A stretch of 64,000 nucleotides of DNA from Alphaproteobacteria bacterium (lineage in GTDB: Bacteria > Pseudomonadota > Alphaproteobacteria > MPNO01 > UBA830), in NCBI GenBank assembly GCA_964291215.2, contig OZ219791.1:1472001-1536000 (forward strand), read 5' to 3'. The notes under the pieces are model-generated. The model searched no databases, was not told the origin of the DNA, and was given only the letters and a program-made list of their open reading frames with translations. Position numbers and translations under genes: made by a program. Within the stretch, counting starts at the first letter, position 1. Every line of letters starts with the position of its first letter. Positions 6,417 through 62,061 of the stretch are shown here, piece after piece.

Positions 6417-8305
6417 CGACCAAGTATATCGGCGGGCACGAAAATTCGATCGGTGGGCTGATCGTGGACGGCAGCAACTTCCCGTGGGACGAGTTCCCCG
6501 AGTACTAGTAGTCCACCGATATTGCATTGATGATTTTTTGTGGGTAGTGTTCCTGTGTCGGCATCCGTTGGAATCTGGACAGTGTCGATATCCACACGGG
6601 TAAGATGCCGAACAGGCAGGCAGCCCCATGCGCAGGTCCGGACAACGGGCATGCTCGCAGGTCTTCGGCGCAATGACAGGAGCGTGGCCAACTCTCAGGG
6701 CAGAAAGCTCTACCGGGTGACCCTTTCAGCGCAGGAGCGCCAGGATCTGAAGGCGATCGTCGACGGCACCGGGGCTGCCTGGCGTCGGCGCCGGGCACAA
6801 ATCCTGATGCTGAGGGGCGCTCGGCTTGTCGATGCCGACATTGCGCTGGGCATCGGCACGGCGACGGTCGAACGCTTGCGCTGCGTCCTGGAGGAGCTGG
6901 ACGCAGCCCTCAGCCGCAAGGAGCAGGTGAACCGTCGGCCAAAACGGGGGCGATGGAGGCGAAGCTGATCGCCCTGCTCGTCCCCGCCCGAGGGCTGTGC
7001 CCGCTGAAGCTGCTTGCCGGCCGTCTGGTGGAGATCGTCGAGCGCATTTCGGAAGAGACGGTCAGGAAGACGCTAAAAAAGAGATCAAGCCGTGGCTAAA
7101 CTGGTGCATTCCACCGCACCGGAGCGCACAGTTCGTGGCGGCGGATGTGCTTGACATTTATCAGCGGGACTTTGCCGGGGACGAGGTGCTGGTGTGCGAG
7201 ACCAGCCGGCAGCAGACGAAAAAAACTCGCATCCCCCGGTCAGCCGGAGGTGGTCGACTATGAATATGAGCGCAACGGCACGGCCAACCTCTTCATGGCC
7301 TTTGCGCCCAACGAGAACTGGCGCACGGTGAAAGTCACCGACCGCCGCGGGACTGGACGCACTTCATCCGGGAGCTTGCCGACGACCATTTCCCCGACAA
7401 GAAGATCGTGCTGGACAATCTGAACACGCACAGTCCCGCATCACTATATGAAGCCTTCGAGCCCGAGGAGGCGGGTACGAAAGCGGTTCGAGTTTCGCTA
7501 TACGCCGAAGCATGGAAGCTGGCTCAACATGGCCGAGATCGGCGCGCTGTCGCGGCAGTGCCTTCGGCGACGCATTCCCGACCGTGACACCATGCGGCGG
7601 GAGACGGCAGCATGGGTGGAACGGCGCAATGCGGCCGATGTCACTGTCGACTGGCGTTTCACGAGGAAGGATGCCCGGACGAAACTGAAGTCTCTATATC
7701 CGTCAATACAATAATGTTAGGCTACTAGCCCGCCTTGAACACCCCGGATCCTTCCTATCACGGCGCTGTTCGGGTGGAGGCGGTGAAACCGATCGGACCG
7801 GCCTCCTAACATCATCAAGGCGCGCACCACGCTGCTGCGCGATCTGGAACGCGCTGTCGCCGTTCAGCGCGTTCCAGATCATCCAGGGCTTCGAACGCTG
7901 GCGCTGCGCGTCCGCGAGCACAGTTGCAACGCGCAGGCGGTGGCCGACCATCTTGCGGGCTATGCGACAGGGGCGAACGTGATCCATCCGAGTCGGCAGG
8001 ACGGCGAGTCTAAGGTGCCGTGCCGACACCTACCTCTCCGGTGGCTGTGGCGGGCTGGTCGGGTTGGAACTCAGGGACGGACGGGAGGCCGGACGCCGCT
8101 CTATCGACGCGCTCATGATGTTCTACCATGTCGCCGATATCGGCGTTGTCCGCTCGCTCGCGGTCTATCCGGCGAGCACGACCCACAGCCAGCTGTCGCC
8201 GGAAGACTAGCTGGCCTCGGGCGTATCGGACGGTTGCGTCTGACTTTCCGTCGGGATAGAGCACATCATCACGGACCTCGACCAGGCGCTCGCTCGCGCC
8301 GACGC
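6417..8305 (+). pseudogene. metY: O-acetylhomoserine sulfhydrylase remnant, 5' truncated and split by IS630
   Basis: TKYIGGHENSIGGLIVDGSNFPW before the IS; PALNTPDPSYHG, IIKARTTLLRDL, ALSPFSAFQIIQG, YHVADIG, PASTTHSQL, LSVGIEH after it, with stops and frameshifts. Confidence 0.85.
6505..7728 (+). mobile_element. IS630 family element, degraded
   Basis: CTAG at both ends with IRs (ctagtagtccaccgatattgcattga / tcaatacaataatgttaggctactag); fragments DYEYERNGTANLF, DNLNTH, YTPKHGSWLNMAE. Confidence 0.9.
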
Positions 8306-8481
8306 CTGGCCCTGCCGTTCCGAGAGCGGCGCCGCCACGCCGCGTTGCAGGCCCGGCTCTTGGGAGGTCGATGTCGACATTTCGGAACGGCGGATATTGA
8401 CGTCGGGCGACGATGCCCGCACTATCGATTCCGGCATGCGCAGGCACGGTCGGCGCGGCGGAAACGGGGAGGAGGGGAACC

Positions 8482-9096
8482 ATGCCGAGAGGCGTGATCG
8501 ACCATGACGGGCTGCAAGCGCCGGAAACTCGCGCACTGCGTGCTGCGGAGCCGCCCCTAGGCATGCCGTTCGAGATCAGGAAGATCGGCCACGTGGTGCT
8601 GATGGTGCAGGACATCGAGCGATCAGTCGACTTCTACACCAGAATTCTCGGTTTCCGGGTTTCGGACGTCTATACGGATTCCATGATGCCTGGCCGCATG
8701 GTGTTCATGCGCTGCAACGCCGACCATCACGGCGTGGCGCTGATCGGCGGCGCCCGGGAGCCGGCCAACAGCAACGAACTCAATCATCTCGCATTCGAGG
8801 TCGCGAGCCTCGACGAGGTGCTGCGGGCGCGCGAGCATCTGAAGGCCAACGGTGTGAAGATCATCTTCGACGGTCGTCGGCGCGCCGGCTGCCAGGTCGC
8901 GGTCGAGTTTCTCGATCCCGACAACCATGTCCTCGAGATCTACTGGGGCATCGACCAGATCGGCACCGGTGCCGACGCGCGCGCTCCGGAAGGTTGGCGC
9001 GAAGAGATGTCGCTCGAGGACGCAATCGACAATCCGCCGGCCGGCCAGGACACGAGCCTGCGCGATCCGTCGCTTCGGGCCCGCCGGAGCGGTTGA
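8482..9096 (+). CDS. VOC (glyoxalase / extradiol dioxygenase) family protein
   Basis: KIGHVVL, DHHGVAL, NHLAFEV, DPDNHVLEIYW; strong SD GGAGGAGG before ATG 8482. Confidence 0.85.
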   Translation: MPRGVIDHDGLQAPETRALRAAEPPLGMPFEIRKIGHVVLMVQDIERSVDFYTRILGFRVSDVYTDSMMPGRMVFMRCNADHHGVALIGGAREPANSNELNHLAFEVASLDEVLRAREHLKANGVKIIFDGRRRAGCQVAVEFLDPDNHVLEIYWGIDQIGTGADARAPEGWREEMSLEDAIDNPPAGQDTSLRDPSLRARRSG

Positions 9097-9188
9097 ACGC
9101 AGGCGAGCGGGCGGCAGGGGTCCGCACTGTCCCGCCCGGCGTGGCTGGGTTATATTAGGCGCTCGTCAAGCCGATGCGATGATGACAC

Positions 9189-11066: not shown

Positions 11067-11432
11067 ATGATCATGAAGAAATCAGCCATAGCCACAGCCC
11101 TGCTGACCGGCGTTGCCGTAGCAGCCATGAGCAACCAGGTGGCGGCGAAGCCCAACGACAAGCTGACGCTCGCCGAGGCGGCACCCGCGGCGGTGCAGGC
11201 CGCATTCAAGAAGTGGGTCGGCGGCGAGGCTCTGGGCGACGGACGCAAGGACAAGTGCTACGGGATCTCGCTTGCAGGCCAGAACGACTGCAAGGCCGGC
11301 GCGGGAACCAGCTGCGAAGGCTCGTCGACGGCGGATTTCCAGGGCAATGCCTGGTCCCATGCGCCCGCTGGAAGCTGCAAGTTTATCGTGACCCCCAAGG
11401 GCCCCGGCTCGCTTTCCGAGATCAAGCGCTGA
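11067..11432 (+). CDS. DUF2282 family signal-peptide protein (BufA1-like bufferin precursor)
   Basis: Sec-like signal; four-Cys core [13 protein letters not shown]...SCEG...W...GSC...GSL. Confidence 0.88.
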
Positions 11433-13777: not shown

Positions 13778-13799
13778 CCTGGACAGCCGACTGCCTTAA

Positions 13800-15154
13800 C
13801 CCAAGTTGGCACTTTTTGCGTCAGTTGAAGGGGAAATTTATGCGGCAGCCTCACTCGATATACCTTATGTTAGCATTTTCGTGACATTGCCTACTATATT
13901 TACGATTTCCTGTCCGAGATGGCCGGTGTAGTGCCAGAATATTGCCGATTCGCTCGACCCCGCCGCCAAATCCGGTATATCCTCGTCAACACAAAAGGCT
14001 CCAGACAATATGTTCATCAGGGCAACCAAAACCCGCAGCACCGCAGACGGCAAACCCGTTTACCGGCTCGTGCTTTCTCAGCGCACCGACGACAAGGTCA
14101 GGCAGCGCACCCTGCCTCGGTACCGACTGTCCGGTGGCGCGCAAGAACCGGAAGGAGGTTACCGCCGAAGCGCTGCTCCACGGCCACCCGCCACTGTTCG
14201 AAGCCGCGTGCAGGCCGCAGCCGAGAACATCGTCAACAAGGGCCCGGAGGTTCCGCGCCGATGCTCTGGAGGAAGACGCACGCAAATTGCGACCGTCAAC
14301 CTCGACAGCCTCGAGCACGAGAACCCGCGTTCGGTCGGCTGCCTGTGCCTCGAGGCGCGATCTCGGCTTCACGACCTCGGCATCACGGGCCGCGAGTGCG
14401 CTGATCGTCGCCAGGATGATCCGCCAGCGAGCGCTGGCTGCGCGATGACAGCGCGACCGCGGAGCTTCCGGAGCGCAAGGCGCGCAAGACGCCGTACCGA
14501 ATCGGCGACCTGCGTCACCGGGCCGCCATCCGGAAGGAACTGTTCAACCACGAGCGCGCGCTGCATCCCCGACACCATCGCCTTTTACGACCTCACCAAT
14601 GTTCACGGCCGCGCCGACGGCAAGCTCCCCCGCTTCGGGCGCTCGAAGCAGAAGCGCAATGATTGCCCCACGCTGGCGCTCGACGGCGCGGGCTTTCGGT
14701 GCAGTTGCGAGGTCTTGCCGGGCAACGTGGCCGGGCACGGATGCGCTGGCGAGGCTGGAGGCGGGCCCGGCGGCAAAGCCGACGGTAGTCATAGACGCCG
14801 GCACCGAGGCGAACATCGCGTGGCGAGCACGACTGGATCGCGGGCGGCGCCGCCCGAGGGTGGGCCCGAGGCTGATCACCAGCACCAACCACGAGGTGCA
14901 GGCGCCTTGCCAGCGAGGATGGCGCGGCTCCACGTGGTCAGCGAGAGCAGGAAGAGGGCCGAGGACGCCATTCCTGGCTGTAGGGCTTCGAGGCGGCAAA
15001 GTTCCACCTCTCGGCCAAGGGCCGGCGCCACGACAAGGTGCCGGAGAGCGGTCTCAAGCAGCGCTTCTCCACCGTCGCCCGGCACTACGAGATCACTGTC
15101 GAGAAGGCCGGCGCTAACGCAACTGCCGCTTCAGCCATAGGCCGCAATACGACA
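13800..15154 (+). mobile_element. IS1634 family remnant
   Basis: MFIRATKTR...YRLV...KVRQRTL, FYDLTN, RFGRSKQKRNDCP, LALDGAGF, TVVIDAG fragments with many small deletions. Ends approximate. Confidence 0.8.
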
Positions 15155-16756
15155 AGCATCCATGTTTCCTTGCAAGGCTTTCGCGGGTGTCCGCGGTGGT
15201 GTTTTCCGTGGTTGTCCACAGGCGGTCCGGGGTTCCGCCTTGTCGATGTCCTGCGAGCGAGGCGACATGCAGCTTGTGGTCCCGGCGGCGGGTTGCCGTC
15301 CGTTGCTCATGGTCACGTGAGCGCGGCCACCTTGCCGCCCAGCGTCCCCGGGCATGGTAACGTTACCGTGGTCAATGGGGTTCCGGGTGTCCCGTCCGTA
15401 GCCGCGCGGCGGTTCGATGTCCTTGAGAGCCTCAATGTCGGCCTCGACGATGATCTGCAGACGTTCTCCGTAAGCCGTGTCGCGCAGGGAGTCGGGGAGA
15501 CTGTCGAAACTGTCCCGATAGTGCTCCTGCAATGCACCGAGCCACCGCATCGCGCCAGCGTTGCGCACGGGAACGACGGGGCTTTCGGTGGTGGACGGCG
15601 GAGATTTGCGGCGTTCCCGATAACGGCGCTGCTTCTCGGCAGGGGCGAGAGCCATGAGAGTGTCTCCTTCGCTCACTCACCGGTGCTTCGGGCGACCAGC
15701 AGCGCTGCTGTCGCAGCAAGGTGTTCGCCAGCACGTTGCGCATCACGGCGACAATCGCGACCTTGCTTGCCGGCGGTCTCGAGGCGTTCGAACACCAGGT
15801 CCGCGTTGAAGCGTGCCGGTTGCGGCCATGAACAGGAGATCGCGTGGCCTTCTGCGCCCGCCTCGGATGTGTCGGGCACCGTGGCCGTCGGCCATCGGCG
15901 CCATCCCGATCAAGGCTGCCGACGCTGCCGAGTTCGGGCATCCAGAAGGGCGGCGGCGGTCACCGGACCGGGGATCGAGGTCAGGATGCCGTACCTCTGC
16001 TCGGGATCACGGACGATCACCGCTTTGATTGCCGCACCGGCAATCATCGAAATCGGCCGCCGAGGCCCTTGTGACGGTCTCGCCATCCACCTCATCTGCC
16101 ACCTGCCTGGCGTCGACAAGCGCGGCACCAAGAGATCCTCCAGGCTCTTGAGGAAGGCACCCTGAGGAGCTACAGGCTCGAGATCGCACCGTGCCGATCC
16201 TGGCCAGCGTCGACGCGATTGGCCAGATGGCCCAACGCTTCGGCGAAGCCCGCAGCGGGCAGGACAACCTCGAAGCCCCGGTCATGAAGACACTGGTAAA
16301 CCCTGCGGTGATAGCGGCCTGTCGCCTCCATCACCACACGGGTCACCTCGGAGGCTGCGAAGCTACGTGCCCGCCAGCTCGTGGCGTCGTTCGCAAAACG
16401 ACGCGCTGCCGCACGGACTGGCCTTGCTGACCCCTGCTACTACCTTGACCATTGTCCCTTGCTCCTCGTCTCATGATGATACGGCTTAAACTCGGGCATC
16501 CATTCAGGACGCAAGGGACGCCAAGGGAGGTTGGTCGACCACGCTCGGGAACGGCTCTGCAAGGCCAAGGCGGAAACGGCAACCTTCGCGGAGATCGTTT
16601 GATCCCCGCACCCCTGTGCATGCTCGCACAGGGAAGCGGAATCTCTCTGCAACCATAGACCGGGCACCCTCCCACAGTCGAGGTTATCCACATTTTCCCG
16701 CCCCCGACCGCTGTGGGTGATTGCATCATCACTGGGACAAAACCTGGTCATATAAG
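15155..16756 (-). mobile_element. IS110 family element copy A (degraded) with internal passenger ORF
   Basis: MEATGRYH, ILTSIPG, WMPELG, KVAIVAVMR fragments; CT core at both ends on the minus strand; homologous end to end to 24753-26094. Confidence 0.85.
15380..15655 (-). pseudogene. Small passenger ORF inside IS110 copy A
   Basis: SD GAAGGAG then MALAPAEKQRRYRERRK...LPDSLRDTAYGERLQIIVEADIEALKDIEPPRGYGRD; a second eroded copy at about 25775-25905. Confidence 0.6.
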
Positions 16757-16928
16757 GCGGAAAACCTGAGCATGATTGCCGAGCCGGGTGTCGGGAAGGG
16801 ACGACATCTTCAACGCCGAGATCCCTCCCGCCTGCCAGCGCGACCTGTGGGCGGGCAAATCCGGCTCCTTGGCCGAACGCTGCGATGGCTGCTATCCTGG
16901 CGACAGACAAAAGCCGAAGGAGCAACAG

Positions 16929-20184: not shown

Positions 20185-20238
20185 GGCTAGGGATATAGCG
20201 GGTTTCTCGACGCAATGAAACCGGCCCGGGCATTTGCC

Positions 20239-20431
20239 CACGACGATCCCATGCTAATTCAGAGACGCGAAATCCGAATGCGTTGGGGCTCGGCTCATCA
20301 CAGATCGCCTCTTTGATCGCAATTTTCGTGCCAAGAAGGCCCCATCGAGCCTTGGCGGCACGATTGCAGTGCGACGCAAACTGAGAAAATCTCGCCAGTC
20401 GTCGCCGGATTAGCAGCGTGGGATCACCGTG
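20239..20431. mobile_element. ISAs1-type MITE (~190 bp), copy 1
   Basis: Ends CACGACGATCCCATGCT / AGCGTGGGATCACCGTG; 9-bp TSD GCATTTGCC at 20230-20238 and 20432-20440. Confidence 0.88.
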
Positions 20432-20439
20432 GCATTTGC

Positions 20440-20898: not shown

Positions 20899-22271
20899 CT
20901 AGCGGTCTTTCAACCGGACACCGTCGAGTCGATCGATTTCAGCATACCGAGATCCCGCATCATTCGGTAGTGTTCGACGAATTGGAGGAGGATTGAGTAT
21001 CTCTGCCAGAGTTTCTGAGTTCCTGGCCGGGGTTGGCGTTTGCTGGGGATGAAGCCTGCCAGGCGCGCGATGTCGATGGCGAAGGCTTCGATGGTCAGTT
21101 CCGGATCGGGAGGCGCGCGCGGTTTGCGTTTGTTGTGCTGCCTGTCGGTCATGTGGATGTTGAGGACCGTGATCTCGTCGCGGTGGATAATGCGGCTGGC
21201 CAGCGTGTTGAGCTCCGAGCGTGCGAGACGCTCGACGGTCATGACGTGATATGCGGTGATGGCATCGAAGGTTAGGCATTTCTTCAGGTCGTCGTCCTGG
21301 TCGAGGTACCGGTCCTCGGTTCGCATGCCGACCTGCAGGGCCTTGAGGTACTCTCCAATCAACCATCGCCTCTCGTAGAAGGAGACGGTGTCGAGGGCAT
21401 CGGCCGCGGTGACCTCGCCTTCGGTAGTGAGCAGCATCCAGTCGAGAGGATCTGCCGGTGGGCCGGGTTCCGTGACATGCACGACCATCACAGGCAGCGG
21501 CGGCGTTCCCCGGGACTTGCTGCCCGGTGGGGCAAGGTCGACCCTTGCCATGCGGACTTCGACGCGCACATCCTTGCGCTCCTTGCGGCGACGCGGCCCT
21601 CCGCAGGCTGCGGTGTCGATCGGCTTCGTCGCGATGCACGGCTCATCGGGCATGTGGTCCCAAAGGTCCCGGTGCGCGCCCGTTGTGGTAACCACGCGCC
21701 GCCGTGTCGAGCGCCTGACGCGCACCAGCAGACCAGCCCTGTGCTCGGTGCTCCGGGCCAGCAGGTCCCGGATGTTGCCTTCATGGTTACGAGATCACGG
21801 TGGGGAGATCACGGATCACCGGCACTTTTGTCGAGGGACAGGCCAGTTCCACGGCCCTGTCGTACCCGCCGGCTCTCCTTGTCGTCCGCCTCGTGCCCCG
21901 GCCGCCGCCGGAAGTCGGCATCGAAATGGAACAGGCCGAGGGCACAGCCGCCTTCGGTGAAGGCGACCCCGGCATGGGCCGCAATATCAAGAGCACCCGA
22001 GCCGCCGCGACCGATGTCGACAAGACCCGCCTCCAGGCCATTGTAATTCAGGAACATCGTGTCCTGGATGGCAAGGACCCGGCGCTGCGGACGGCAGCGC
22101 TCCACCATCGCTTCCTGATGCTCCTCGAGGATATGGTCCATCGGTCACCTTCGGGTTCGACAACAGGCGGCAGGCCGCCTTCTGCTCCGCCCCGCCGGGG
22201 AAGATCACCGGCAGGATCTCTCCGGGACGATCATTCCACGCCCATGGTGATAAGGCGGTCGCGGATGCGCA
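20899..22271 (-). mobile_element. IS4 family (IS50/Tn5-like) transposase remnant
   Basis: RLLSNPKV, VLAIQDT, WMLLTT, YERRWLIGEY.KAL, IARLAGFIPSKRQPRPGTQKLW; frameshifted, 5' end cut by ISAs1. Confidence 0.88.
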
Positions 22272-23559
22272 CACGGCGATCCCACGCCAGGTTTGTTGGA
22301 AGGGTCGGTTTCGCTTGTTCCAGATGATTCGCATTTTTGCCGACTTTTTGTGAAGCGGCGCAGTATCCGTTGTCGTGGAGGCAGCGGATTTTTTTGAGAC
22401 GACTCCGAAGGGTTTTGCGCTCCGGGATGTGGTTGTGCGCCTTGCGCGGCCTGATGTCGCTGGAATCGTGCGGTTGACGGTATCCTGGTTTCAAGCAGTT
22501 TGCCGGTCGAGGTCTGCGTGTTCACCTGGCGCGGGCGGTGGATTGGTGCTGCGGGCTGGCAGACGGGCGCCCTCAGCTGCGCGGGACCGCTGGATTGGCT
22601 GGCGCCGCGAGGAACAGTTCAGGCGGTTGCCGGGAACAACACGAGGTTTGTTGTTCCTGGTGGTCGTTTCCGGGCCTCTTTTGCGTTGTCGCGGATGGTG
22701 CGGCGGCGACCGGGAGGCTGCCGTTGCTTGTTGCGGAGAAGTTTGTCTCGCCGACGAAGTTCAGCGGCACCATGTACAAGGCGGCGAACCGGGAGTGCGT
22801 TGGCAGGAGCCATGCGCGCGCCAGCGGGCGCCGACCGGGGAGGCGAAGGATCCTTACGTTTTTCCGCTGCGTCGTGACGCGGGATCGTTCGCCGCTTCCT
22901 GCGGCGTGGGAGTTGCGGGCGCCGCCGGTCGGCGCAGGAGTTGCGCTCGATTTATCAGCGGCGCTTTCCGGCGCGCGCAGGGGCACCGCATCGCCTCGGT
23001 GCTGTGCGTGATTTTGCTGGCTTGCGAACCGGCACGGTTGCGGCGGCGCACTACGACGCAGAAGGAGCTGGAGCAGCGTGGAAGAACAGGGACAAGCCGG
23101 TCTCCACCGTGCACCGGGTGCTGCAGAACACCGACCCGGGATGGATCGAGGACGCGGCGCGCAGCCGCAGGTCGGCAACGCGGTCGACGGCAAGCGCACC
23201 GGCGAGGATCATTACGAGACGGTCTCGCTGGCCGGTATTCGATCCTCAACTGTCACGGCGGGGAGATCGCTGCCGTCCACGCCGCGACGGCGCCGGCCGT
23301 CTGCTCACCCTCGACGCGCTCCACACCACCCGCGAGGCTGATCGTCGAGACCCATCGCGCGGACTGATGGTCAAGGGCAACGCGCCTTCGAGAGCATCAA
23401 CTGGAAGACCGCGAGCGCTACAGCGAAAAGCCCGCGCATGGCCGCCAGCGCACCATCTTCACCCCGCTGGCGAAGATGATCAACTAGTCAAGCAGATCTT
23501 CCGCGTCACCCGGCGCGTCGAATTCAGGAAATCCGGAAAACCGAACACGCCATGACCTC

Positions 23560-24752
23560 CCCCGTTCCATAGTGAAGTGCAACACATGATGGGCTGTGGC
23601 CATGTGTTTTTAGACGCATGATGTTGCGGAGCTGTCCAGCAGCGGCGAGAGTTCCTGTACAAGATGGAGGGAGCTTGTTCATGTCCAAAGGCTACCGTCA
23701 CCTACGAAGAGCGATGTCAGATTGAGGCAGAAAAGCGGTCTTTCACAAGGTGCGATTGCTCGGCAGCTGGGCCGTTCAACAATTTTCCGAGAGATCAAGC
23801 GCAACACCGGGGGACGGGGTTACCGTCACAAGCAGGCGCAAAGGATGGCAGAAACGCGCCGCAGGGCCGCCTCGTCTGTTTCTTGGCGGTTGACGCCTCA
23901 ACGATGAGCTGAAGCTCAGAAAAAGCTGCGGGAGGGCCCCGAGCAGCGGCCGTTTTCGACTGGAAGGCCGTGAACGGATCCATGATCGCCGAAGATCGGA
24001 GAGCCGGGGGCGTCTTGTGGAAGAAGCTTCGGCGGCGCGGCAAGAAGCCGAACTGGAAGGGCGGATGCCATTCCGGCCGGGTGGACATTTCCGAGCGCCC
24101 TGCGGAGGCAAAGGAACGGATCGGCGACTGGGAGCCATCATCGGCAAAGCTCACAGTGGAGCTGTCGTGTCGCTCGTGCCACGAAATACACCTTGCTGGG
24201 TGGACAGAAAGACACGGTTGGTATGATCCGCCTGCTCGGCTCTGGTGCGCTATTGGTCCACACAATCACAACGGCAAGGAGTTCGCAGACCACAGGCGTG
24301 TCGCACTTGACGCAGATTTCTTCTTCGCCTTTCCATTCCTGGGAGCGCGGCTTGAATGAGCACACCAACGGCCTGGTGCGGGAGTACTTCCCGAAGGGCA
24401 CGGACTTTCGCGCGACATGCAACGAAGATGTTCAGAAGGTGCGGCTCAACACTCGGAAAGTCCTGGGATCGCCGACGGAGGTAATCTTGAAGTGAAACCG
24501 CGCTGACCATCTGCGCCATGTTCCGCAGCCGCAACGTGCAGCAGGGTCCATGCCGCGCGACGGCGAAATAGTGGCTTGAAGCCGACAAAGGCGTTGCATA
24601 AGCTCGATGTTGAAGGAACTGAAGCTGTTCCCAAGCGGAATCGAGAGGGGCAGAGGGGAAAAATTTGCGCAACACCCGGCCCTCATCTCCGTTCGGGCTA
24701 CGCCCTCACTGCGATGAGGGCCGGGTGTTGCACTTCAGACTGGAAGTGGGGC
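23560..24752 (+). mobile_element. IS30 family remnant
   Basis: TYEERCQI, IARQLGRSTIFREIKRN, IGDWE, NGKEF, SWERGLNEHTNGLVREYFPKGTDF; IRs TGAAGTGCAACAC / GTGTTGCACTTCA. Confidence 0.88.
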
Positions 24753-26094
24753 CTTATATGACTAGGTTTTGTCCCCTTGATGATGAAATCATCCACAGCA
24801 GTTGGGGGCGGGAAAATGTGGATCTGTGGGAGAGCTATGGTTGCAGAGAGATTCCGCTCCTCTGTGCGAACACGCACAGGGGAGCGGGGATCAAACGATC
24901 TCCGCGGAGGTTGCCGTTTTAACCTTGACAGAGCCGCGACCGAGTGTGGTCGGCCAACCTCCCTTGACGTCCCTCGCTGGATGCTTGGGTTTGAACCCGT
25001 ATCATCGTAAGGCGAGGAGCAAGGGACGATGGTCAAGGTAGTAGCAGGGGTCAGCCAGTCTGGACATCTGGCGCATTGTTTTGCGAACGACGCCACGAGC
25101 TGGCGGGCAGGTGGCTTCGCGGCCTCGGGGTGAGCTGGGTGGTGGGCGACAGGCCGCTATCACCGCAAGGTTCACCAGTGTCTTCATGACCGGGGCTTCG
25201 AGGTTATTCTCGTCAACCCGTTGCGGGCTTCGCCGAGGCGATGGGCCAACCGCGTCGACGCCAAGATCGGCTGGGCGATCTTGAGTCTGTGGCTCCGCCT
25301 TCCTCAAGAGCCTGGAGGATCTCCTGGTGCCGCGCTTGTCGACGCCAAGCAGGTGGCAGATGAGGTGGATGGCGAGACCGTCACAAGGGCCTCGGCGGCC
25401 GATCTCGATGATCGCATTGCCGGCGCGGCGACCAAAGCGGTGATCGGCGGTGATCCCGAGCAGAGGTACGCCATCCTGACCTCGATCCGGTGACCGCCGC
25501 GGCCCTTCTTTGCTGGATGCCCGAACTCGGCAGTGTCGGCAGCCTTGATCGGGGTGGCGCCAACGACCACGGTGCTAGGCACATCCGTGGCGGGCGCCGA
25601 AGGCCACGTGATCTCCTGCTCATGGCCGCAACCGGCACGCTTCAACGCGGACCTGGTGCGCCTCAAGACTGCCGGCAAGCAAGGTCGCGATTGTCGCCGT
25701 GATGCGCAAGCTCTGGCGAACACCTTGCTGCGACAGCAGCGTTGCCTGAAGCACCGGTGAGTGAGCGAAGGAGACACGGCCCTGCCGAGAGCGCGATCGG
25801 GACTGTCTCGACAGTCTCCCTCTACGACACGACTTGGGGAGAATGTCTGCAGATCATCGTCGAGGTCGACATCAAGGAGATCGAACCGCCTTGGGACACC
25901 TGGAACCCGGACGGTCACGTGCCCGGGGACGGCAAGGTAGCCGCGTTCACGTGACTAATGGACGGCAACCCGCCGCCGGGACCACAAGCTTCATGTCGCC
26001 TCGCTCGCAGAGCAAATCCCACACCGCTTGCGGACAACCACAGAAAACATCACCACAGACACCCGCAAAAACCTTGCCAAGAAACATGGATGCT
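24753..26094 (+). mobile_element. IS110 family element copy B (degraded)
   Basis: Collinear with the reverse complement of 15155-16756, from CTTATATGAC to AAACATGGATGCT. Confidence 0.85.
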
Positions 26095-41310: not shown

Positions 41311-41839
41311 GGGTGCAGTTCTCGTATGGCGCATCCAAATCATTGATTTAACACGGTTGTGCGGTTGCGAGGTAGCGGCGAAAACGGGTTTTCGTGACAA
41401 TCGCCCGTTTCGGGACAGGATTTTGTCACGACCCCCGCGGCATCGACAGGGTGATCCGGGCGCTGCGCCACCTTCGCGATACCGCGGCGCCAACGGGCCG
41501 ACATCGACAGGGAACTGTCCTTCTTCCGCAAGCATCGCCACCGCATGCGCTACCACGCGCTGAAGCAACCGGCTCGGGAATTGTCGAGGCGGCAAACAAG
41601 ACCCTCGTCACACAGCGCACGAAACGCTCCTGCATGCGCTGGCGCATCGTCGGCGGACAATCACCTTCCGCGCCCTGCTCGAATCCGGCCGCTTCGAGAG
41701 CACGTGGACGGCCATGATCGGTGCAGACGACGCACCAGCCAACGACAACATCAGCCCAAATCACACCCCGGCACTGGCCGCATGAGATGAACAAATGGTG
41801 GTACTGAGCCTGCAACTGTGCCATACGAGAGTCTCACCC
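41311..41839 (+). mobile_element. ISKra4-derived non-autonomous element, copy A
   Basis: IRs GGGTGCAGTTCTCGTATGGC / GCCATACGAGAGTCTCACCC; exact 8-bp TSD GACAAGAC; fragment GSGIVEAANKTLVTQR.KRS.MRW. Confidence 0.85.
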
Positions 41840-41851
41840 GACAAGACTTCG

Positions 41852-42687: not shown

Positions 42688-43002
42688 CTAATTCGGAGAC
42701 GCGAAATCCGAAAGCGTTGGGGCTCGCGTCATCGCAGCTCGCCTCCTTGATCGCAATTTTTGTGCCGAGGTATCTACTCACCCCTAGTTGGGTTCTGATT
42801 GGTCGTAGTGCTCGTTGATGATGTCTGCGTCTTTTCCGTCGAGGGCGATCTGGGTGGCGACGAGTGGATTGTAGCCGAGTGCGGCCATGGAGGTGAGGTA
42901 GCTTGGCACCATGCTTTTGCGTGGAGCGGAAGCATCCGGACACCTTGAGCTTTGCCATCCTGATCTTCTGTTCTCCGGCATTGTTGGTGAAGCTGACGTC
43001 GG

Positions 43003-44529
43003 GTGTGCCAGGCAAACTGGTGGAATGTGGCCGGGTGCAAGTCCCGAGAGAGGCTAATTTCTCCGTGAACCATGCGTCGTGAGGCGAAGCGTTGGGGAGC
43101 GGCAGGCCAGGCTATTGAGCCACGAGATGCTTTGAAACCGGAGTGCCGAGGTCGTGGCCGAAGGCAACGAGCCGCGTTGGTGAGGGGGGCTCCGCGGGGT
43201 CCGAGAACCATGGCCGAAGCAGGGACCTGGGGGGTCTTGCCCCTCTGTCGTGGAGGGGCCGCAGAGGAAATTCCGTAAGCCGATGATGAACGAGAAGTCA
43301 GATTCGGCCATAGTACCGCTGAAGGCGGCGAACAAGGGCTCTCCGGAGCCTGCGGAGTTGCTGGAGGGAAGGGCAATGCGGTTGGCCCGCGCCGCGCGCA
43401 GAAGCGGGGGTCACAGGCGGCTGAACGCAGGTAGCGAAGAGGAACCCGGAAGAGCGTCTTTACTCCACCACGTGACGGTCGACGTTCTGCACGATGCGTT
43501 CCATTCCTTGAGGAAGGACGCGGCGGCGGGGCGTTGTGTGGCAAGCGTACGCGGAGGGTGTGGAACTGCTGCACGCCCGTGTGCACAGGGGTGCGTACCG
43601 GGCGCCTCCAGGGTTTACATACCCAAGGAGGATGGAGGGCAACGACCGCTTGCCTCGGACAAGATTCTTCAGCGGGCGGTGTGATTCTGGTGCCGCGAGA
43701 CGGAGTTCCTCGGGTTTAGTTACGGCTTCCGGCCGGGGCGCATCATGCGCCGTCACGGTGGAACGGCGGAAGGTCAACTGGATCGTTGACGCCCCTTCGA
43801 CAACCGCGACCATCTGGTCGCGATGCTCGGGAAACGGATCGGGGGGTCTGATCATCAAGTGACGCCGGCGTCATGGAAGGGACCGACCGGCAAGGGAACA
43901 CCGCAAGGGGCGGCGCCTTGCGAACCTGCACTACGTACGACTGGTTCCAGAACCACTGGCGCAAGCGGATGGCTGGAGGCGACACGATCACTGTCCGCTA
44001 TGCGGACGACTTCGTGTGCGGCTTTCAGCATCTGGGCGACGCGCGGCGCTGAGACCTTGGGGAGAGACTGGCCCACTTGAACTGCACCCGGAAAATCATC
44101 GAGTTCGGTCGGTTTGCCAGAGCGAACCGCCGGAAGCGTGGGCAAGACGTTCGACTTCCTCGGCATGACGCACTTCTGCGAACAGACGAGGAAAGGCAGG
44201 TTCAGGGTCGGTCGCAAACGGGCACCCTGCGGCGGATCAAGGAGGCCTTGCGCAGGCGGTGGCACGATAACCGGCACGAAACGGCCAAGTGGTGAGTTAT
44301 CAACGGCTGCTACTACGCCGTTCCAGGAAGCAGCCTGCAGAAGTTCATACACCAATGCAAACAGCTGCGTGCCCTTCGGCGACGCTCCCAAAAGGACTTC
44401 ACCGGGGACATAGACACCCTCACCGCTGCCCACTGAGCCCGTGGCCAAACCAGCGCCTTGTCGTCAGGGGAGGAGCGAACAGCGCACGTCCGGTTCTGTG
44501 CGGGGGGTAACCCGGTTCCCTACCGCGAT
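43003..44529 (+). mobile_element. Group II intron copy 1 (degenerate RT/maturase)
   Basis: 5' GTGTG, 3' CCCTACCGCGAT; EKSDSAIVP, VYIPKEDG.QRPL, FSYGFRPG, GTPQG, VRYADDFV, TFDFLGMTH fragments; domain V remnant GCACGTCCGGTTC. Confidence 0.92.
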
Positions 44530-45963
44530 GTGTGCCAGGCAAACTGGTGGAATGTGGCCGGGTGCAAGTCCCGAGAGAGGCTAATTTCTCCGTGAACCAT
44601 GCGTCGTGAGGCGAAGCGTTGGGGAGCGACAGGCTAGGCTATTGAGCCACGAGATGCTTTGAAACCGGAGTGCCGAGGTCGTGGCCGAAGGCAACGAGCC
44701 GCGTTGGTGAGGGGGGCTCCGCGGGGTCCGAGAACCATGGCCGAAGCAGGGACCTGGGAGGTCTTGCCCCTCTGTCGTGGAGGGGCCGCAGAGGAAATTC
44801 CGTAAGCCGATGATGAACGAGAAGTCAGATTCGGCCATAGTACCGCTGAAGGCGGCGAACAAGGGCTCTGCGGAGTTGCTGGAGGGAAGGGCAATGCGGT
44901 TGGCCCGCGCCGCGCGCAGAAGCGGGGGTCACAGGCGGCAGGTAGCGAAGAGGAACCCGGAAGAGCGTCTTTACTCCACCACGTGATGTTCTGCGTTCCA
45001 TTCCTTGAGGAAGGATGCGGCGGCGGGGCGTTGTGTGGCAAACGTACGGGGTGGAACTGCCTGCACGCCCGTGTGCACAGGGGCGGGCGCCTCCAGGGTC
45101 TACATTCCCAAGGAGGGGCAACTTGCCTCGGACAAGATTCTTCAGCGGGCGGTGTGATTCTGGTGCCGCGAAACGGAGTTCCTCGGTTCCGGCCGGGGCG
45201 CATCATGCGCCGTCACGGTGGAACGGCGGAAGGTCAACTGGATCGTTGACGCCCCTTCGACAACCGCGACCATCTGGTTGCGATGCTCGGGAAACGGATC
45301 GGGGGGTCTGATCATCAAGTGACGCCGGCGTCATGGAAGGGACCGACTGGCAAGGGAACACCGCAAGGGGCGGCGCCTTGCGAACCTGCACTACGTGCGA
45401 CTGGTTCCAGAACCACTGGCGCAAGCGGGACACGATCATTATGCGGACGACTTCGTGTGCGGCTTTCAGCATCTGGGCGACGCTGGGACCTTGGGGAGAG
45501 ACTGGCCCACTTGAACTGCACCCGGAAAATCATCGAGTTCGGTCGGTTTGCCAGAGCGAACCGCCGGAAGCGTGGACAAGACGTTCGACTTCCTCGGCAT
45601 GACGCACTTCTGCGAACAGACGAGGAAAGGCAGGTTCAGGGTCGGTCGCAAACGGGCACCCTGCGGCGGATCAAGGAGGCCTTGCGCAAGCGGTGGCACG
45701 ATAACCGGCACGAAACGGCCAAGTGGTGAGTTATCAACGGCTGCTACTACGCCGTTCCAGGAAGCAGCCTGCAGAAGTTCATACACCAATGCAAACAGCT
45801 GCGTGCCCTTCGGCGACGCTCCCAAAAGGACTTCACCGGGGACACAGACACCCTCACCGCTGCCCACTGAGCCCGTGGCCAAACCAGCGCCTTGTCGTCA
45901 GGGGAGGAGCGAACAGCGCACGTCCGGTTCTGTGCGGGGGGTAACCCGGTTCCCTACCGCGAT
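44530..45963 (+). mobile_element. Group II intron copy 2 (degenerate RT/maturase)
   Basis: Direct repeat of copy 1 starting on the next base; 93 bp shorter. Confidence 0.92.
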
Positions 45964-46943
45964 GGTTGTCTATGAAGCGCAGGTTTTCGTGTTTCACGAG
46001 ACGTTCGTGCAGGTTGTGCGCGTCGGACTTGCGTCCACGTTTTCCTTTCGGCGGCGGCGGGATGTCGGGCAGTTCCTTGGCGCCCTGATGGTGCGGTAGC
46101 GCTTGTGCACGGCCCGGCGTCGTTCAGGGTCTTGGATGCGCTCTTGTTGACCTTGTGGCAGGGAGCAGGCTCTTCATCAGTCGCGCGGTAGCCTCGACGA
46201 CGAAGGTCAGTTCGCGCAGCAGGTGGCTGCCGCTGGTGGCTACACTGCCATGTACGAGGCCCAGGACGCCCTTGTAGCACGGGCCGATCTCTTGCTTGCG
46301 GTGCGGGAACTTGCACGTCCCGACGACATGAAGCCACTTGCTGTTGATCCGAAATCGTCGACATCGGGCGTTGCAGGAGGTGCGCCACGGCAGCCTCCTC
46401 CCATGACGCATCGTGAAAGCATAGCCGAGGCTTCGGAGAGCTTGATGCCGGAGATCGCCTGCACGAGCGCGACAGCACGGCGCAGGGACAGCATCTGGGC
46501 GACCAGCAGGTTGATGACGAGGGCCTAGATGCCGATGCCGTACTGCACGGGATGTTGTCGGGGAACCGGCCCTTGCACTTCGGGCATTCCTTGATCTCGA
46601 CGCGGCGCTCGACGACCTCGAACACGATGTCGTGCGGCGCTCCCGATCGACGGGGCCGTCGATGTCGGCGCCGCAGGCGTCGCAGGCCGCGACCGTCTCC
46701 TCGACGATGGCAGGTTGTCGCCCATCTGCTGGTTCGGCTTTGGGCCCTTGCTCCCGGCACGCTCTCGTCCGTCTGTGACGGCGGCAGACCGGAGTTCCGG
46801 CTCGTGCGTGGTCTTCTCCAGAAGGACGACGATGATGATGTCGAGCAGGATGACGAGGACGCGGATGACGGCCTCTTTCGGCACCTTGCCGGCAGCGCCG
46901 CGGTCTTGGCCGCTTCGAACTCCTCGCGCGCCGCCCGTCGCCA

Positions 46944-47072
46944 TCACCCGGCCTTGCGCTTCATCAGCGCGCCGCTTCCGAGATGCGTTTTCACATACAG
47001 ATCATGCGGGGGCCGGAGCCCCGGAAGCAGCTGGCACAGCCCGCTCGTCGCCTTCGATCCAAAGTAGCCCAC
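46944..47072 (-). pseudogene. DNA adenine methyltransferase N-terminal fragment inside IS66
   Basis: GYFGSKATSGLCQ...PPHDLYVKTHLGSGALMKRK resembles Dam-family motifs X and I. Confidence 0.6.
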
Positions 47073-47938
47073 TGGCGGTCCCCGTCGTTCTCGATGACCA
47101 CCACTAAACGAATCGGCCTGCAGTGTCAAATCTCCACGAAAACCCGTTCGTTACTCTACCCCGACATCAAGCCGGAACCAGGGGGTGAGCAGTTACGTGC
47201 CGAGAAGGCCCCATCGAGCCTTGGCGACACGATTGCAGCGCGACGCAAACTGAGAAAATCTCACTAGTCGTCGCCGGATTAGAAGCGTGGGATCGCCGTG
47301 GGTCAAGATTTTCCCCGGCATGCCGGTGCACTTCCCCGAGCTGCGCGGCCACGTGATCGGCGCCATCGCCGTAGAGCCTGACGACAACAGCGACGGCGAC
47401 TATGAGATCGCCGACTTCTCCAACCGTTGCGGTATCGCGGCCCGGTGGTGCATCGTGCCGCCCGGGGATGCCGGTCATGGCGGCCTATTTCGGCCCTCCC
47501 TGCGGCTCCAACCCCAATTGCCGCACTGTTTCCGGCAGCGCCCCCGGTACATGAGGCGTTGCCGCCTATGTCAGGAATACCTCCGCTGCCGCGCCGTTCG
47601 TGACCGGTGGGCTCATCGTGATGAAGCATGTCTTCCGCGGCCAGATGACCAATACGGAACTGGTCTCCCGGCTGATGGCGACGGCCAACAAGCAGGGCAT
47701 CTACGCCGACAGCAGAATCTACGGCGAGGGACTGATGGACTTGGGCGCTGCGACGGCGCCGTTCTGGTTCTCCCTGGGCGGCTTCGCCGCCGAAGGGGCC
47801 GGCCCCGGCCTCGCTGCACGCCTTCATGGCGCCGCAACGGACCGGCCGGGCGACCGGCTCCTGCATCCTGCGATGCACCGAACGAGCCATCCTGCCCGGC
47901 TGCCGACCTCGGAATGAATGGACGCAAGCAGCTCCGCC

Positions 47939-50221: not shown

Positions 50222-51137
50222 TCACGCCGCTTCGATATCGGTGAGGGCGAAGTCGTTGCCCTTGAACAGCAACGGTTCGCCTGTTGTGTACGCAAGCGCG
50301 TAGGCGAAACAGTCTCCGAAATTCAGTGCCGCAGGATGATTGCCCTTGCCGAAGCGCCGTCAGGTGCGCCGGGCCGCCTCGATATGTGCGACTGCAAGGG
50401 TGCAGTTCTCGTATGGCGCATCCAAGTCATTGATTTAACACGGTTGTGCGGTCGAGAGGCAGCGGCGAAAACGGGTTTTCGTGACAATCGCCCGTTTCAG
50501 GACAGGATTTTGTCACGACCCCCGCGGCATCGACAGGGTGATCCGGGCGCTGCGCCACCTTCGCGACACTGCGGCGCCAACGGGCCGACATCGACAGGGA
50601 ACTGTCCTTACTTCCGCAAGCATCGCCACCGCTACCACGCGCTGAAGCAACCGGCTCGGGAATTGTCGAGGCGGCAAACAAGACCCTCGTCACACAGCGC
50701 ATGAAACGCTCCGGCATGCGCTGGCGTATCGTCGGCGGACAATCACCTTCCGCGCCCTGCTCGAAGCCGGCCGCTTCGAGAGCGCGTGGACGGCCATGAT
50801 CGGTGCAGACGGCGCACCAGCCAACGACAACATCAGCCCAAATCACACCCCGGCACTGGCCGCATGAGATGAACAAATGGTACTGAGCCTGCAACTGTGC
50901 CATACGAAACTCTCACCCGACCGTAACCGGCATCGACTCGATCTCAGCCGCTGCCAGAAGCGCGTCGAGCTCGTGCCCAGCCGCCGCCCCGCCTCGGCTT
51001 TCCACGACGATGAACGCTTCCAAGACACTGGCAATCGACATGCGACAGGGTGTTGTCGCCATGATGGCTCCGGCATAGCGTTTCGCGTCCGCCTCGCTGA
51101 ACAGAATCGCCAGCACTGCCGAGGTGTCGACGATCGC
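50222..51137 (-). pseudogene. vapC: VapC (PIN) toxin, disrupted
   Basis: IVDTSAVLAIL...VT|[33 protein letters not shown]...LLFKGNDF; start codon lost, internal stop, MITE insertion. Confidence 0.88.
50398..50918 (+). mobile_element. ISKra4-derived non-autonomous element, copy B
   Basis: Near-identical to 41311-41839; degenerate TSD GACTGCAA / GACCGTAA. Confidence 0.85.
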
Positions 51138-59936: not shown

Positions 59937-60214
59937 CCATATGCGGTTTCGAAAATCAGATCCCGAACGAAATACAGGATCAGGATCAGGACGACAGGCG
60001 AAATGTCCAGCCCGCCCAGATTGGGCAGAAAACGCCGGATTGGCCGCAGTGCGGGCTCGGTCACGCGGTAGAAAAAATCCACAATGACATAAACTAGGCG
60101 ATTGTTCGTGTTGATAACGTTGAACGAAATGAGCCAACTTGCGACGACGGCTATCAGAAGGATCCAGATATAGAGCGAAATCAGGTTGTCGATCAGGTTG
60201 AGTATTGCGTGCAT
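59933..60214 (-). CDS. YggT family membrane protein
   Basis: SWLISFNVIN, TEPALRPIRRFLPNLGGLDISP. Confidence 0.93.
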   Translation of the reverse strand: MHAILNLIDNLISLYIWILLIAVVASWLISFNVINTNNRLVYVIVDFFYRVTEPALRPIRRFLPNLGGLDISPVVLILILYFVRDLIFETAYG

Positions 60215-60293
60215 TGCCGCGTCCACGGTTCGCTGCGGGTTCACCGCCTGAAAGCAATCTAGCGACCGAGCGCCTCATGCACAAGCAGACCGT

Positions 60294-62061
60294 CAGGTGT
60301 TTCCCACGCTGCATTCAATTTTGCTGTCTTCTGCTGTCCGGAGGTTTCACGGCGTGCCGGGTTTTCCGGCTTCGGGGCCGTCCGCGGTCGTCGCCGGCGG
60401 CGTTATCGGCGCGTGGGCGGCTTGTGGGCGGCGTCCGGGAATCGGCCGGACACCATTGGCGCTCAGGGCTGCGACGGCTTCCCGGCGGTCGAGCCGCCGC
60501 CGCCGTGTTTCGGCGAGGCTCTCGCGTCGGTTGGCGAAGATCACCGCGAGCGCGATGTTGTCGAGTCTGGCGCGGTTTGCCGGTCAGGCAGGCGTTTTCG
60601 CCGAAGACGCAGTCTCGGTGGTTCATGTTTTCCGCGGCCCGGTGCCTGCGGCCGCAGCAGTTCCTCTGGCGACGCGTGTTGCGCATCGAGCTGATGTACC
60701 GGTGCAGCCGTTGCCGCTCGCTGCGCCGCTGGCGCTCCTTCCCGGCGGCTCGCGGTAGCATGCGGGCGATCTGCCGGAGTAGTTGATCAGGTCCTCGAGC
60801 GGCACGTATCGAGCGCTGCTCGAGGCGGGCCTTGCCTCCTTGAAGCGGCCACTGGCTCCCGGTCGATGCCGTCGAAGGTTTCGGGCGCCCTTGACCGGGA
60901 AGACATGGTCTGCGCCGCAGCGCCGGGTGATCAGCGCCGCCGGCGTCGTGCGGGTGATCACCTTGCCGCGAACATCGGTGCGCTCGAGGAGGTGGCCGCC
61001 AGCTCGCCGTCGTCGAAGTTCAACAGCGCGAAGGGTGCGCCGGAGGCGTGAGAGCCACGGTCTCGTGGTGGCTGTTGCGGTTGGCGTCGCGGATGCGCTT
61101 GCCGTTGGCGGCAAGCGCCCGGGCGAGCCCGCGGCCGAGCACGTCCTCGAGCGCCTCAGGATCGATCGACTGCCCGGTGGAGGGTCGCCTTGGAGGGCGG
61201 CTCGCGCAGCCCCGTCCTCGGGTTCCGCCGATGGCCTCGAGCTCGTCCCCGGACAGCGGCCGCGCAAACTGCGCAGCTGCCTTTCATGTTCGCAAGCTCG
61301 GCGAGAACGTGAGCACACCGTGTGCTTTCTGCGCGGCGGAAGTCCTCGATCGCCGCCAGCTCGTCGTGCAGCGAACGCATCACTTCGGAACCCCGGGGAG
61401 GAGGCAGGCGGCGCCCGGCAGCGCCTGCGGGCGCGACAGCAGCCGTCGCGCCGCACAACGAAAATCTCCTTGCCATGGGGGTCGGTGCAGCGCCCGCGGG
61501 CGAATCCCCTGGCACGCCAGCCCGCCGCCTTGTGCCCGCAAAACGCTCCGGATCGCAGAACGTCTCCGCCACCTGGTGGCCGCAGGCCCAGTCGTCGGCC
61601 AGCCGCCGCGTCGTAAGAAAGAAGGAGGCAAGGTTCGGAAACGTTCCCGGCGCCGCACGCACCAGCAGTCGCGTGTTGTCAGATCAAGCCACTGCTGCTC
61701 CGGCTTCCAGCCACCGGTCGCGGCACTTGAAGGCACCGTCACGCCGCCAGACCACTGCCCCCTGAAGGACGCAATATGGCACCGCCCCGCCAGACGGCGA
61801 AACCCGAGATAGTCGTCCATCAACGCATCCCGCAGCGGACGCTCCTCAGACTTCGCGAACCTCGGACAGACCCTTCCGGAGCTGCGACGTGAATCAGACA
61901 GGACGCGATGTGCATGTGAACCGACATCCCCGCACCATGACAACTCCAGTGCAGGAAAGCCAGCGAAAACTGCAAAAAAACCTCTCGCACCAACTCGCGC
62001 CCCCGCAAAACCCAAGTACTGCCTTGAAAAATAAAACAGAATTTAGCGTAAGATCATCCTG
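60294..62061 (-). mobile_element. ISAs1 family remnant
   Basis: Ends CAGGTGTTTCCCACGCT / AGCGTAAGATCATCCTG; near-TSD GCAGACCGT / ACAGACCGG; fragments PPSKATLHR, DVRGKVIT, FPVKG, HRAAENMNHRDCVFGEN. Confidence 0.82.

Follow-up and report, generated by a model that had tools for sequence, protein, structure and literature searches.

Short, sequence-anchored deletions erode the multicopy mobile elements of a repeat-rich alphaproteobacterial genome

In fungal repeat-induced point mutation (RIP), C-to-T changes are introduced via a methyltransferase-like protein during the sexual cycle. Abortive gap repair produces internally deleted, non-autonomous transposons; it is known from eukaryotic elements, in which a single large deletion or a small number of them results. 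Bacterial indels are described as having power-law sizes and as originating mostly at microhomologies. Here, we describe 5–7-bp deletions in the insertion sequences (IS) and group II introns of an alphaproteobacterial genome (G000), as seen in a 64,000-nucleotide window (G000:C2:1472001–1536000) for which a first-pass annotation had reported eroded repeats beside intact core genes. The damage resembles RIP in being concentrated in unrelated repeats, in having a dinucleotide preference and in apparently sparing short repeats and element ends. Unlike RIP, the process leaves deletions and has no known dedicated gene, and the elements continued to spread. As in abortive gap repair, the termini are kept and deletion may be coupled to copying from a homologous element, but G000 has dozens of 5–7-bp deletions rather than a few large ones.

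In "Candidatus Sodalis pierantonius", as far as the available part of the report describes it, deletogenic slippage generates 2–100 bp deletions at repeats of direct, gapped or quasi type in a genome that has lost recFOR and sbcC (PMC4948707). The shared features are an IS-rich genome, small deletions that far outnumber insertions, an enrichment of in-frame deletions in genes by selection, and perhaps G+C-rich flanks, which fit the single-copy deletions of G000. In contrast to that account, the repeat deletions of G000 are 5–7 bp long, often lack microhomology, are sequence-anchored and are concentrated in repeats, with recFOR retained and 913 of the 991 shared genes unbroken. Pseudogene deletional bias, in the portion of the source used here, has power-law sizes, an excess of 3n lengths and an insertion:deletion ratio of ~0.76 (Danneels et al. 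2018, PMC6054270). In both cases insertions in neutral DNA are outnumbered by deletions, but the G000 sizes have a trough at 3–4 bp and a peak at 5–7 bp regardless of frame. Wolbachia keeps mostly dead IS copies, with conversion among non-functional copies (Cerveau et al. 2011, PMC3205602). It is likewise a degraded IS archive with gene conversion; a fixed-length, anchored deletion spectrum does not appear in the available part of that report. No published report of such a 5–7-bp anchored spectrum was found in the open-access literature, supplements apart.

The G000 genome is 6.15 Mb in two contigs, has 64% GC and is rated 99% complete. Loci related to the window are alphaproteobacterial, and the nearest ones are from uncultured genomes. 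Repeated segments (n = 918) together make up 35% of the genome; 115 repeat families were collected by a greedy, non-exhaustive search. The comparison genomes G001–G004 are relatives, and G002 belongs to the same genus as G000. The sister genome G001 is ~93% identical to G000 and lacks the window IS copies at its orthologous sites. The gene caller assigns ~65% of G000 to coding sequence, compared with 86% of the sampled part of G001, yet only 78 of the 991 genes shared by the two genomes are disrupted in G000. Because repeats are this abundant and the coding fraction this low while the shared genes are kept, G000 is IS-bloated rather than pseudogene-rich. The deletion class accounts for a third of such genomes being unannotatable, since transposase remnants drop under profile detection.

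Sixteen IS and group II intron families (14–171 copies each, with up to 30 copies used per family) have a median load per copy of 6–27 deletions/kb and 2–42 substitutions/kb. This is about one deletion per substitution, with substitutions scored against the majority base, which understates branch length. The sizes do not form the flat 2–13 bp range of the first-pass annotation. Instead, the 641 alleles common to at least three copies peak at 5–7 bp with a trough at 4 bp (4 bp, 10; 5 bp, 125; 6 bp, 226; 7 bp, 144; 8 bp, 31; 9 bp, 9), followed by a small 11–14-bp echo of 70 alleles that are likely adjacent deletion pairs. The earlier description of the deletions as microhomology-flanked holds in part: 40% have at least 2 bp of microhomology (null 19%) and 22% have at least 3 bp (null 7%), but 217 alleles (34%) have none. 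Quasi-repeat scores are raised in 27% of repeat deletions (null 13%) and in 48% of the single-copy class. The GC of deleted repeat segments is 0.63, against a background of 0.64 and flanks of 0.68; the flanks of single-copy deletions have a GC of ~0.76 versus 0.66. Hairpin-loop deletion was rejected because the repeat deletions of G000 and G002 show no such enrichment. The erosion is real, genome-wide and not ordinary deletional bias, and it carries an unexplained enzymatic signature.

The load is uneven among copies and families. Within one family it ranges from 4 to 33/kb, with near-ancestral and heavily eroded copies side by side, and some pairs from two- to three-copy families are heavily eroded (15 indels versus 20 substitutions). 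A young family of 11–14 copies (G000:C1:2536513–2538816) retains intact 339-aa open reading frames (ORFs) with almost no deletions and is a candidate for a still-active IS. Several recent duplications are also nearly free of deletions. A 202-bp, 103-copy repeat has no 5–8-bp indels in 24 comparisons and is possibly a functional or miniature inverted-repeat transposable element (MITE)-like sequence. Further window copies of this repeat lie at 29925–30119, 41977–42154 and 47193–47301; the repeat is intergenic and shows 7% divergence.

In the repeats, the deletions are anchored to a dinucleotide at one end. An unanchored motif scan found nothing, and a scan anchored inside the deleted segment revealed TC; all signature counts exclude deletions with microhomology above 1. 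TC occupies deleted position 1 in 60 ends of the no-microhomology set, where 24.6 are expected, and position 0 or 1 in 176 of 307 repeat deletions (57%; null 0.30). The anchor is one-ended and strand-symmetric (73 vs 74). It is found at every allele frequency, including singletons (24/52), is highest at frequency 0.5–0.75 (60/85) and is present in low-copy pairs (17/34). Single-copy deletions have TC at these positions in 35 of 115 cases (30%; null ~0.29), and the most eroded single-copy stretches in 3 of 22. The difference between repeat and single-copy deletions is significant (Fisher p 1e-6) and persists (p 0.003) in an alignment-blur control, in which 6–10% artificial divergence brings the repeat value to 0.50–0.43. 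Signature T positions are 2–3x more variable than others (62/1405 vs 826/53705), possibly as an alignment edge effect. No motif resembling a protospacer-adjacent or transposon-adjacent motif occurs up to 38 bp from the deletions.

Element ends are spared in G000. Deletion sites climb from 2.6 to 28/kb across the 450 bp inward of true element ends, and thin out over the last 150–300 bp. From internal cut points the density is flat at 16–31/kb, and GC accounts for only part of the ramp.

The genus member G002 shows the same sizes with a different anchor. Its sample is 556 kb of a 6.1 Mb genome, is IS-biased with 27% repeats, and consists of repeat pairs that are not independent. The distinct repeat indels number 21 at 4 bp, 101 at 5 bp, 167 at 6 bp, 28 at 7 bp and 7 at 8 bp, and microhomology is at chance level. 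AT occupies position 0 in 84 ends, where 9.3 are expected. One copy has 21 deletions in 1.3 kb relative to two other copies; short matches have 0.074 indels per substitution. No 5–7-bp hump is seen in the repeat pairs of G001 (6), G003 (2) or G004 (8), samples too small to show absence.

The spectrum of G002, a separate assembly, also bears on whether the deletions are an assembly or consensus artefact of repeats, which is scarcely credible. Short-read contigs of three runs from one study carry the deleted junctions and 5–7-bp indel variants in elements. This support consists of assembled contigs rather than raw reads. A contig of run X1 matches 20 kb of G000 single-copy DNA with 0 differences, including the deletions relative to G001, but X1 may be the source sample. 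Strain X2 differs (~0.75%) over the same 20 kb by ~151 substitutions and by one 7-bp, two 1-bp and one 126-bp deletion. An artefact of repeats would also leave unaccounted for the unaffected young family and the unaffected repeats of the clustered regularly interspaced short palindromic repeat (CRISPR) arrays, as well as the dominance of in-frame deletions in genes.

Alternatively, the elements may have acquired their deletions in a different host or replicon before they entered this genome. Most deletion alleles are old, the families are absent at G001 orthologous sites and no close match to an eroded family exists among 30 relatives, all of which agree with such an origin. However, unrelated families in one genome have the same anchor, which is TC in G000 but AT in G002. 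Copies of one family also span near-ancestral to heavily eroded states, and deletion sizes in G000 single-copy DNA show a comparable hump. Prior erosion elsewhere is highly improbable on this evidence.

The single-copy hump is specific to the G000 lineage. In a comparison with 1.55 Mb of G001 (~1.1 Mb aligned), G000 is shorter at 68 and G001 at 2 of the 6-bp sites in shared coding DNA, while the 3-bp sites are balanced (24 vs 19). Coding deletions of 5 bp (5) and 7 bp (3) are few in G000. Intergenic 5–8-bp sites show 123 G000-shorter and 26 G001-shorter cases, compared with 10 and 11 at 4 bp. Together these form a 5–9-bp deletion excess in the single-copy DNA of the G000 lineage. This supports the earlier suggestion of an unusual genome-wide mutation spectrum as far as single-copy DNA is concerned; the slippage and end joining then proposed fail for the repeat class. 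The lineage-specific excess in shared coding DNA indicates that core genes are also affected and that selection retains the in-frame members. The named core genes argH, lysA, folD and the TIGR02302 gene are all unbroken ORFs, as originally stated, and the 10.6-kb block with argH, lysA and TIGR02302 has a single 1-bp gap relative to G001. Their exemption is not general, since core genes take such deletions when in frame.

Deletion density is nevertheless much lower in single-copy DNA. In 344 single-copy intergenic intervals, which are more diverged than the repeats and leave out intervals that are >25% diverged or >10% repeat, there are ~2 deletions/kb, or 0.03–0.04 per G000-side substitution. 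The density is 0.59/kb in the 78 disrupted genes and 0.09/kb in the 913 intact genes. The predicted excess in multicopy DNA is borne out, with repeats ~10-fold denser in deletions per kb. This excess comes with its own signature and with spared element ends. A dedicated repeat-directed inactivation system is not demonstrated by it: no gene was identified, new private deletions in resting copies are no commoner than those of single-copy DNA, and the 103-copy 202-bp repeat has escaped.

A rival reading is a single genome-wide deletion mutator, in which slippage or lesion skipping in all DNA produces loops of at least 5 nt that escape MutS, and repeats appear more damaged only because they are unconstrained and eroded lineages are amplified as non-autonomous elements. 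This is unlikely, although several observations fit it. The G000-specific excess at 6-bp coding and 5–8-bp intergenic sites is expected, and a few single-copy intervals reach 8–20 gaps/kb. The private deletion rate of IS copies (0.023 per substitution) is near the intergenic rate, termini are spared, introns ride in a 171-copy element, and there is the precedent of Sodalis in the part of that report available (PMC4948707). Against a mutator of this kind, the TC anchor is missing from single-copy deletions, microhomology is at chance in G002 and recFOR is intact. Only 59–68 in-frame 6-bp deletions occur in ~0.94–0.99 Mb of genes, where repeat-level rates predict hundreds, as estimated from 3-bp tolerance.

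The deletion alleles are mostly old, shared and mosaic among copies. In 26 families there are 68 private deletions and 2,939 private substitutions, counts from which 167 and 181 overlapping events and families of <7 copies were dropped. The private rate falls with copy number (rho -0.50, 22 families); this and the heavily eroded pairs from two- to three-copy families led to the rejection of a dependence on copy number. Among the private IS substitutions, 1,741 of 2,939 are C-to-T (G-to-A). In the intron family, 889 of 1,453 indel pairs are mutually incompatible, and incompatibility is 0.46 for pairs within 30 bp and climbs to 0.76 for distant pairs, which points to short-tract exchange between copies. 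The shared, mosaic alleles led to the rejection of star-like independent decay. Repeated cutting at a single anchor was also rejected: overlapping alleles are 1.5x expected, and end-sharing (32 vs 21 expected) is not specially enriched relative to offset overlap (127 vs 84 expected).

Among isolated deletion alleles, mid and high frequencies predominate (17 single, 35 low, 104 mid, 90 high), whereas substitutions are mostly single (2083, 1072, 416). This contrast would be expected if deletions arose at an ordinary rate and gene conversion were deletion-biased, clipping loops of at least 5 nt with a preference for (N)TC starts. The peak of the TC signature at frequency 0.5–0.75 and a 7-bp domain V loss common to 30 of 37 intron copies agree with that account. 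In a crude direction test, however, segment retention exceeds deletion gain relative to opportunity (0.65 vs 0.40). The signature is already present in singletons, and introns can hitchhike inside IS. Biased conversion of ordinary deletions is very unlikely. Of 41 introns, 32 lie at one site of the 171-copy element and a further 7 are placed behind another intron; this host element could thus take dead introns with it. Domain V is shortened in all 37 intron copies examined. Tandem arrays of two or three introns occur in the 171-copy element in the window (43003–45964) and at C2:1320039–1324961.

In G000, the genes recA, recF, recO, recR, recJ, xseA, recQ, recG, ruvABC, uvrD, priA, radA, recN, polA, dnaQ, dinB, mutS and mutL are all full-length. 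The survey urged earlier thus finds mutS, mutL, recJ and xseA present, and Ku, an ATP-dependent ligase and a second dnaE were not found in G000; sbcB and, with E. coli queries, sbcCD were not found there either. As dnaE is single, G000 has no dnaE2. Ku is found in 0 of 5 genomes and ATP-dependent ligase in 0 of 5 genus genomes, with controls matched. Slippage and Ku/LigD end joining fail for the repeat class because microhomology is often absent, being at chance in G002, and because Ku and the ligase were not found.

Among 14 candidate enzyme families searched, 11 have no match over the cut-off in G000 (Piwi, Ku, NucS, ATP ligase, TnpB, TopIB, EndoV, Y1 HUH, UvdE, Vsr and RusA). The Piwi/Argonaute domain PF02171 is found in 0 of 5 genomes, with controls matched, and an AEP-TOTE search of G000 returned a 35-residue match only. 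Eight Vsr-family matches occur in G002. An intact darT-darG pair in G000 (L294:70–3189, C2:100983–104102) directly follows a type I restriction specificity-like gene. In G001, darT has an in-frame stop; in G002 a C-terminal fragment remains, and the gene was not found in G003 or G004. The distribution of darTG across the five genomes is suggestive. DarT2 ADP-ribosylates DNA at TNTC or TYTN motifs in the portions of the reports available (PMC7003065, PMC13368585); these known motifs do not fit the deletions. The RuvC of Deinococcus radiodurans, according to the available part of its report, cuts at (G/C)TC|(G/C) (PMC9601230). It is a recombination nuclease with a TC preference, and ruvC is intact in G000, but this enzyme cuts 3' of TC and leaves nicks that are usually sealed again with no sequence lost, whereas the G000 boundary is 5' of (N)TC. 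The gene is also 93% identical in G001, which has no single-copy hump. RuvC as the cause of the anchored deletions is a lead only.

A dedicated, homology-dependent defence analogous to RIP would consist of a nuclease and a joining activity that act on paired repeats at a host-specific cut site and leave 5–7-bp frameshifts. Every multicopy transposase and intron reverse transcriptase (RT) in the genome would then have been frameshifted by it. Elements of unrelated chemistry (DDE, IS110 and group II intron) are struck, the anchor is host-specific (TC in G000, AT in G002) and strand-symmetric, and the element ends and the 202-bp repeat are spared. Both repeat-rich genomes show the pattern, which is absent from the small number of repeat pairs sampled in the other three, and some G002 copies show bursts of deletions. 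As with RIP, the load is higher in repeats and has a sequence context of its own there. The early, independent mutation of each new duplicate that characterizes RIP is not seen: private deletions are rare relative to private substitutions, and hardly any deletions have reached the young family or several recent duplications. The eroded elements continued to multiply until they filled 35% of the genome, and no dedicated gene was found among the families searched. Such a defence is distinctly unlikely. CRISPR self-targeting was rejected, as none of 111 spacers in two arrays matches the eroded elements; the spacers include one duplicate and one with a weak 25-bp match in single-copy DNA. The CRISPR-Cas loci are at G000:C1:574247–587303, with a 96-repeat array and a 553-aa Cas1-containing ORF, and at C2:2063981–2069543, with a 17-repeat array and a 1,046-aa gene. 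From the layout, these genes likely encode a type I-G Cas4-Cas1 fusion and a type II-C Cas9, respectively.

The explanation that we tentatively prefer, at a little short of an even chance, is that the 5–7-bp repeat deletions arose during recombination or copying between element copies via a host nick-and-trim step. Copies would pair, recombine or be copied from one another, and the deletions would be made in those intermediates. A constant length in the absence of microhomology points to nicking at (N)TC or AT, removal of 5–7 nt and rejoining. The host step would nick just 5' of (N)TC (AT in G002) and rejoin the ends without needing microhomology. Loops of at least 5 nt would persist if mismatch repair handles them poorly, which may set the lower size bound in both classes. 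Bacterial mismatch repair works efficiently up to about 4 nt and less well at 5–8 nt, as given in the part of the source available (PMC2504288). Amplification in trans would then increase the number of eroded copies, and short-tract gene conversion would shuffle them. In addition, a weaker, slippage-like class of similar size would act genome-wide, with its frameshifts purged by selection from needed genes. Over the same period, single-copy DNA acquired neither the load nor the anchor, and few private deletions have arisen in resting copies; the anchored class is therefore best linked to processes that are frequent only in repeats, namely pairing, conversion and copying. The step may be a by-product of core recombination or a dedicated defence.

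Several results weigh against this explanation of deletion during inter-copy recombination or copying. The single-copy hump is of nearly the same size, and one genome-wide process would explain both classes more simply. The private rate in resting copies does not exceed the single-copy rate, so that present-day activity of the process is not demonstrated. Selection on intergenic DNA makes the 10-fold excess an upper estimate, and the single-copy set covers 1.55 Mb of about 5 Mb of G001. The end ramp is not seen in the G002 alignments and could, in G000, reflect selection for terminal cis-sites and lower GC. No enzyme for the deletions was identified among the 14 candidate families. Deleted segments are not more polymorphic than others (0.083 vs 0.085), so mismatch-directed cutting was rejected, and so was DarT2 damage, as the target T under deletion (0.16 and 0.14, versus 0.17 for any T) is not enriched.

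A fixed-length, anchored and largely microhomology-independent class implies an enzymatic step outside the repair pathways tested here. If deletion during inter-copy recombination or copying is correct, it is an undescribed way of eroding mobile elements. Every complete genome can be searched for the 5–7-bp peak and the end-anchored dinucleotide, so that prokaryotic repeat-directed mutation becomes directly testable by gene profiling.

In the window, the eroded elements include a tandem pair of group II introns (Table 1). The first-pass annotation had counted about 14 deletions between them, all in copy 2. The gaps are indeed all in copy 2 but number 11, of 6–14 bp, or 12 if one 14-bp gap is read as two 7-bp gaps. 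There are also one 1-bp insertion and 19 substitutions, 16 of them transitions, in keeping with the similar number of mostly transition changes reported. Three of the quoted intron junctions and the 6-bp ISKra4 junction were recovered directly, and the 14-bp gap contains the fourth, ctgc[acgatgc]gtt, as one of its halves. Copy 2 is not the only eroded member of the pair, as copy 1 is equally eroded, and the deletions are not confined to the RT region, as ribozyme domains I and V carry them too. Among the IS families listed as shortened, IS630, IS1634, IS110 and IS30 stand, mostly on weak matches, and IS66 and ISAs1 were not confirmed; IS4, ISKra4 and group II intron identities are also supported. 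The short ISKra4 derivative has 2–3 deletions, and the other eroded window elements besides the introns have 16–37 each.

Table 1. Eroded elements, control repeat and intact genes of the window; deletions and substitutions in elements are counted relative to the longest reconstructable form.
Feature	Position	Strand	Observations
Short-chain dehydrogenase gene	4651..5493	+	intact, single-copy; in-frame 6-bp deletion near 4759 vs G001, an instance of the genome-wide class
IS630-like remnant	6505..7728	+	57 near-full genome copies; weak NF033545 match; absent at G001 orthologous site; 16 deletions of at least 4 bp, 47 substitutions
IS1634-like remnant	13797..15153	+	22 copies; weak NF033559 match; 26 deletions, 53 substitutions
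IS110-like remnant	15155..16757	-	31-copy subfamily; weak PF01548 match; 23 deletions within 15660–16757
Copy of 202-bp, 103-copy repeat	20238..20433		internal negative control; no 5–8-bp indels
IS4-family remnant	20904..22272	-	NF033590, E 5e-41; 4 near-full copies (low copy); less eroded
Eroded element, no family match in profile searches	22272..23559		35 copies; 37 deletions, 37 substitutions
IS30-like remnant	23560..24750	+	IS30 transposase matches at ~24330–24450; HTH_38
58-copy element	24751..26094	+	related to IS110-like copy 15660–16757; 37 deletions, 28 substitutions
argH, lysA, TIGR02302	31315..36735	+	intact core genes (control)
ISKra4-derived short element	41311..41842	+	34 copies; lightly eroded
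Left part of 171-copy intron-hosting element	42770..43002		introns sit at ~position 240 of element
Group II intron copy 1	43003..44529	+	49-copy family; domain V shortened; 43 deletions of at least 4 bp, 11 substitutions
Group II intron copy 2	44530..45964	+	tandem to copy 1; 52 deletions of at least 4 bp, 21 substitutions
Right part of 171-copy host element	45965..47196		32 deletions, 21 substitutions
Second ISKra4-derived copy	50398..50921	+
Eroded element	60318..61849		22 copies; unassigned to a family; 27 deletions, 39 substitutions

In the comparison of the sister genomes, 280 of 1,272 G001 genes have no close DNA match in G000. A ~45 kb block of G001:C179, compared with G000:C2:50000–111500, has a protein identity of only 75–90%, far under the genome average; replacement by transfer or a binning issue is possible. 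Within the window, consecutive genes at 11067–13777 encode DUF2282, DUF692 (MbnB/TglH/ChrH), DUF2063 and DoxX proteins, which we take to be a buf-like peptide-modification cluster. Fragments of a PIN-domain toxin and a PSK-type antitoxin (vapBC-like) at 50916–51561 adjoin the second ISKra4 copy.

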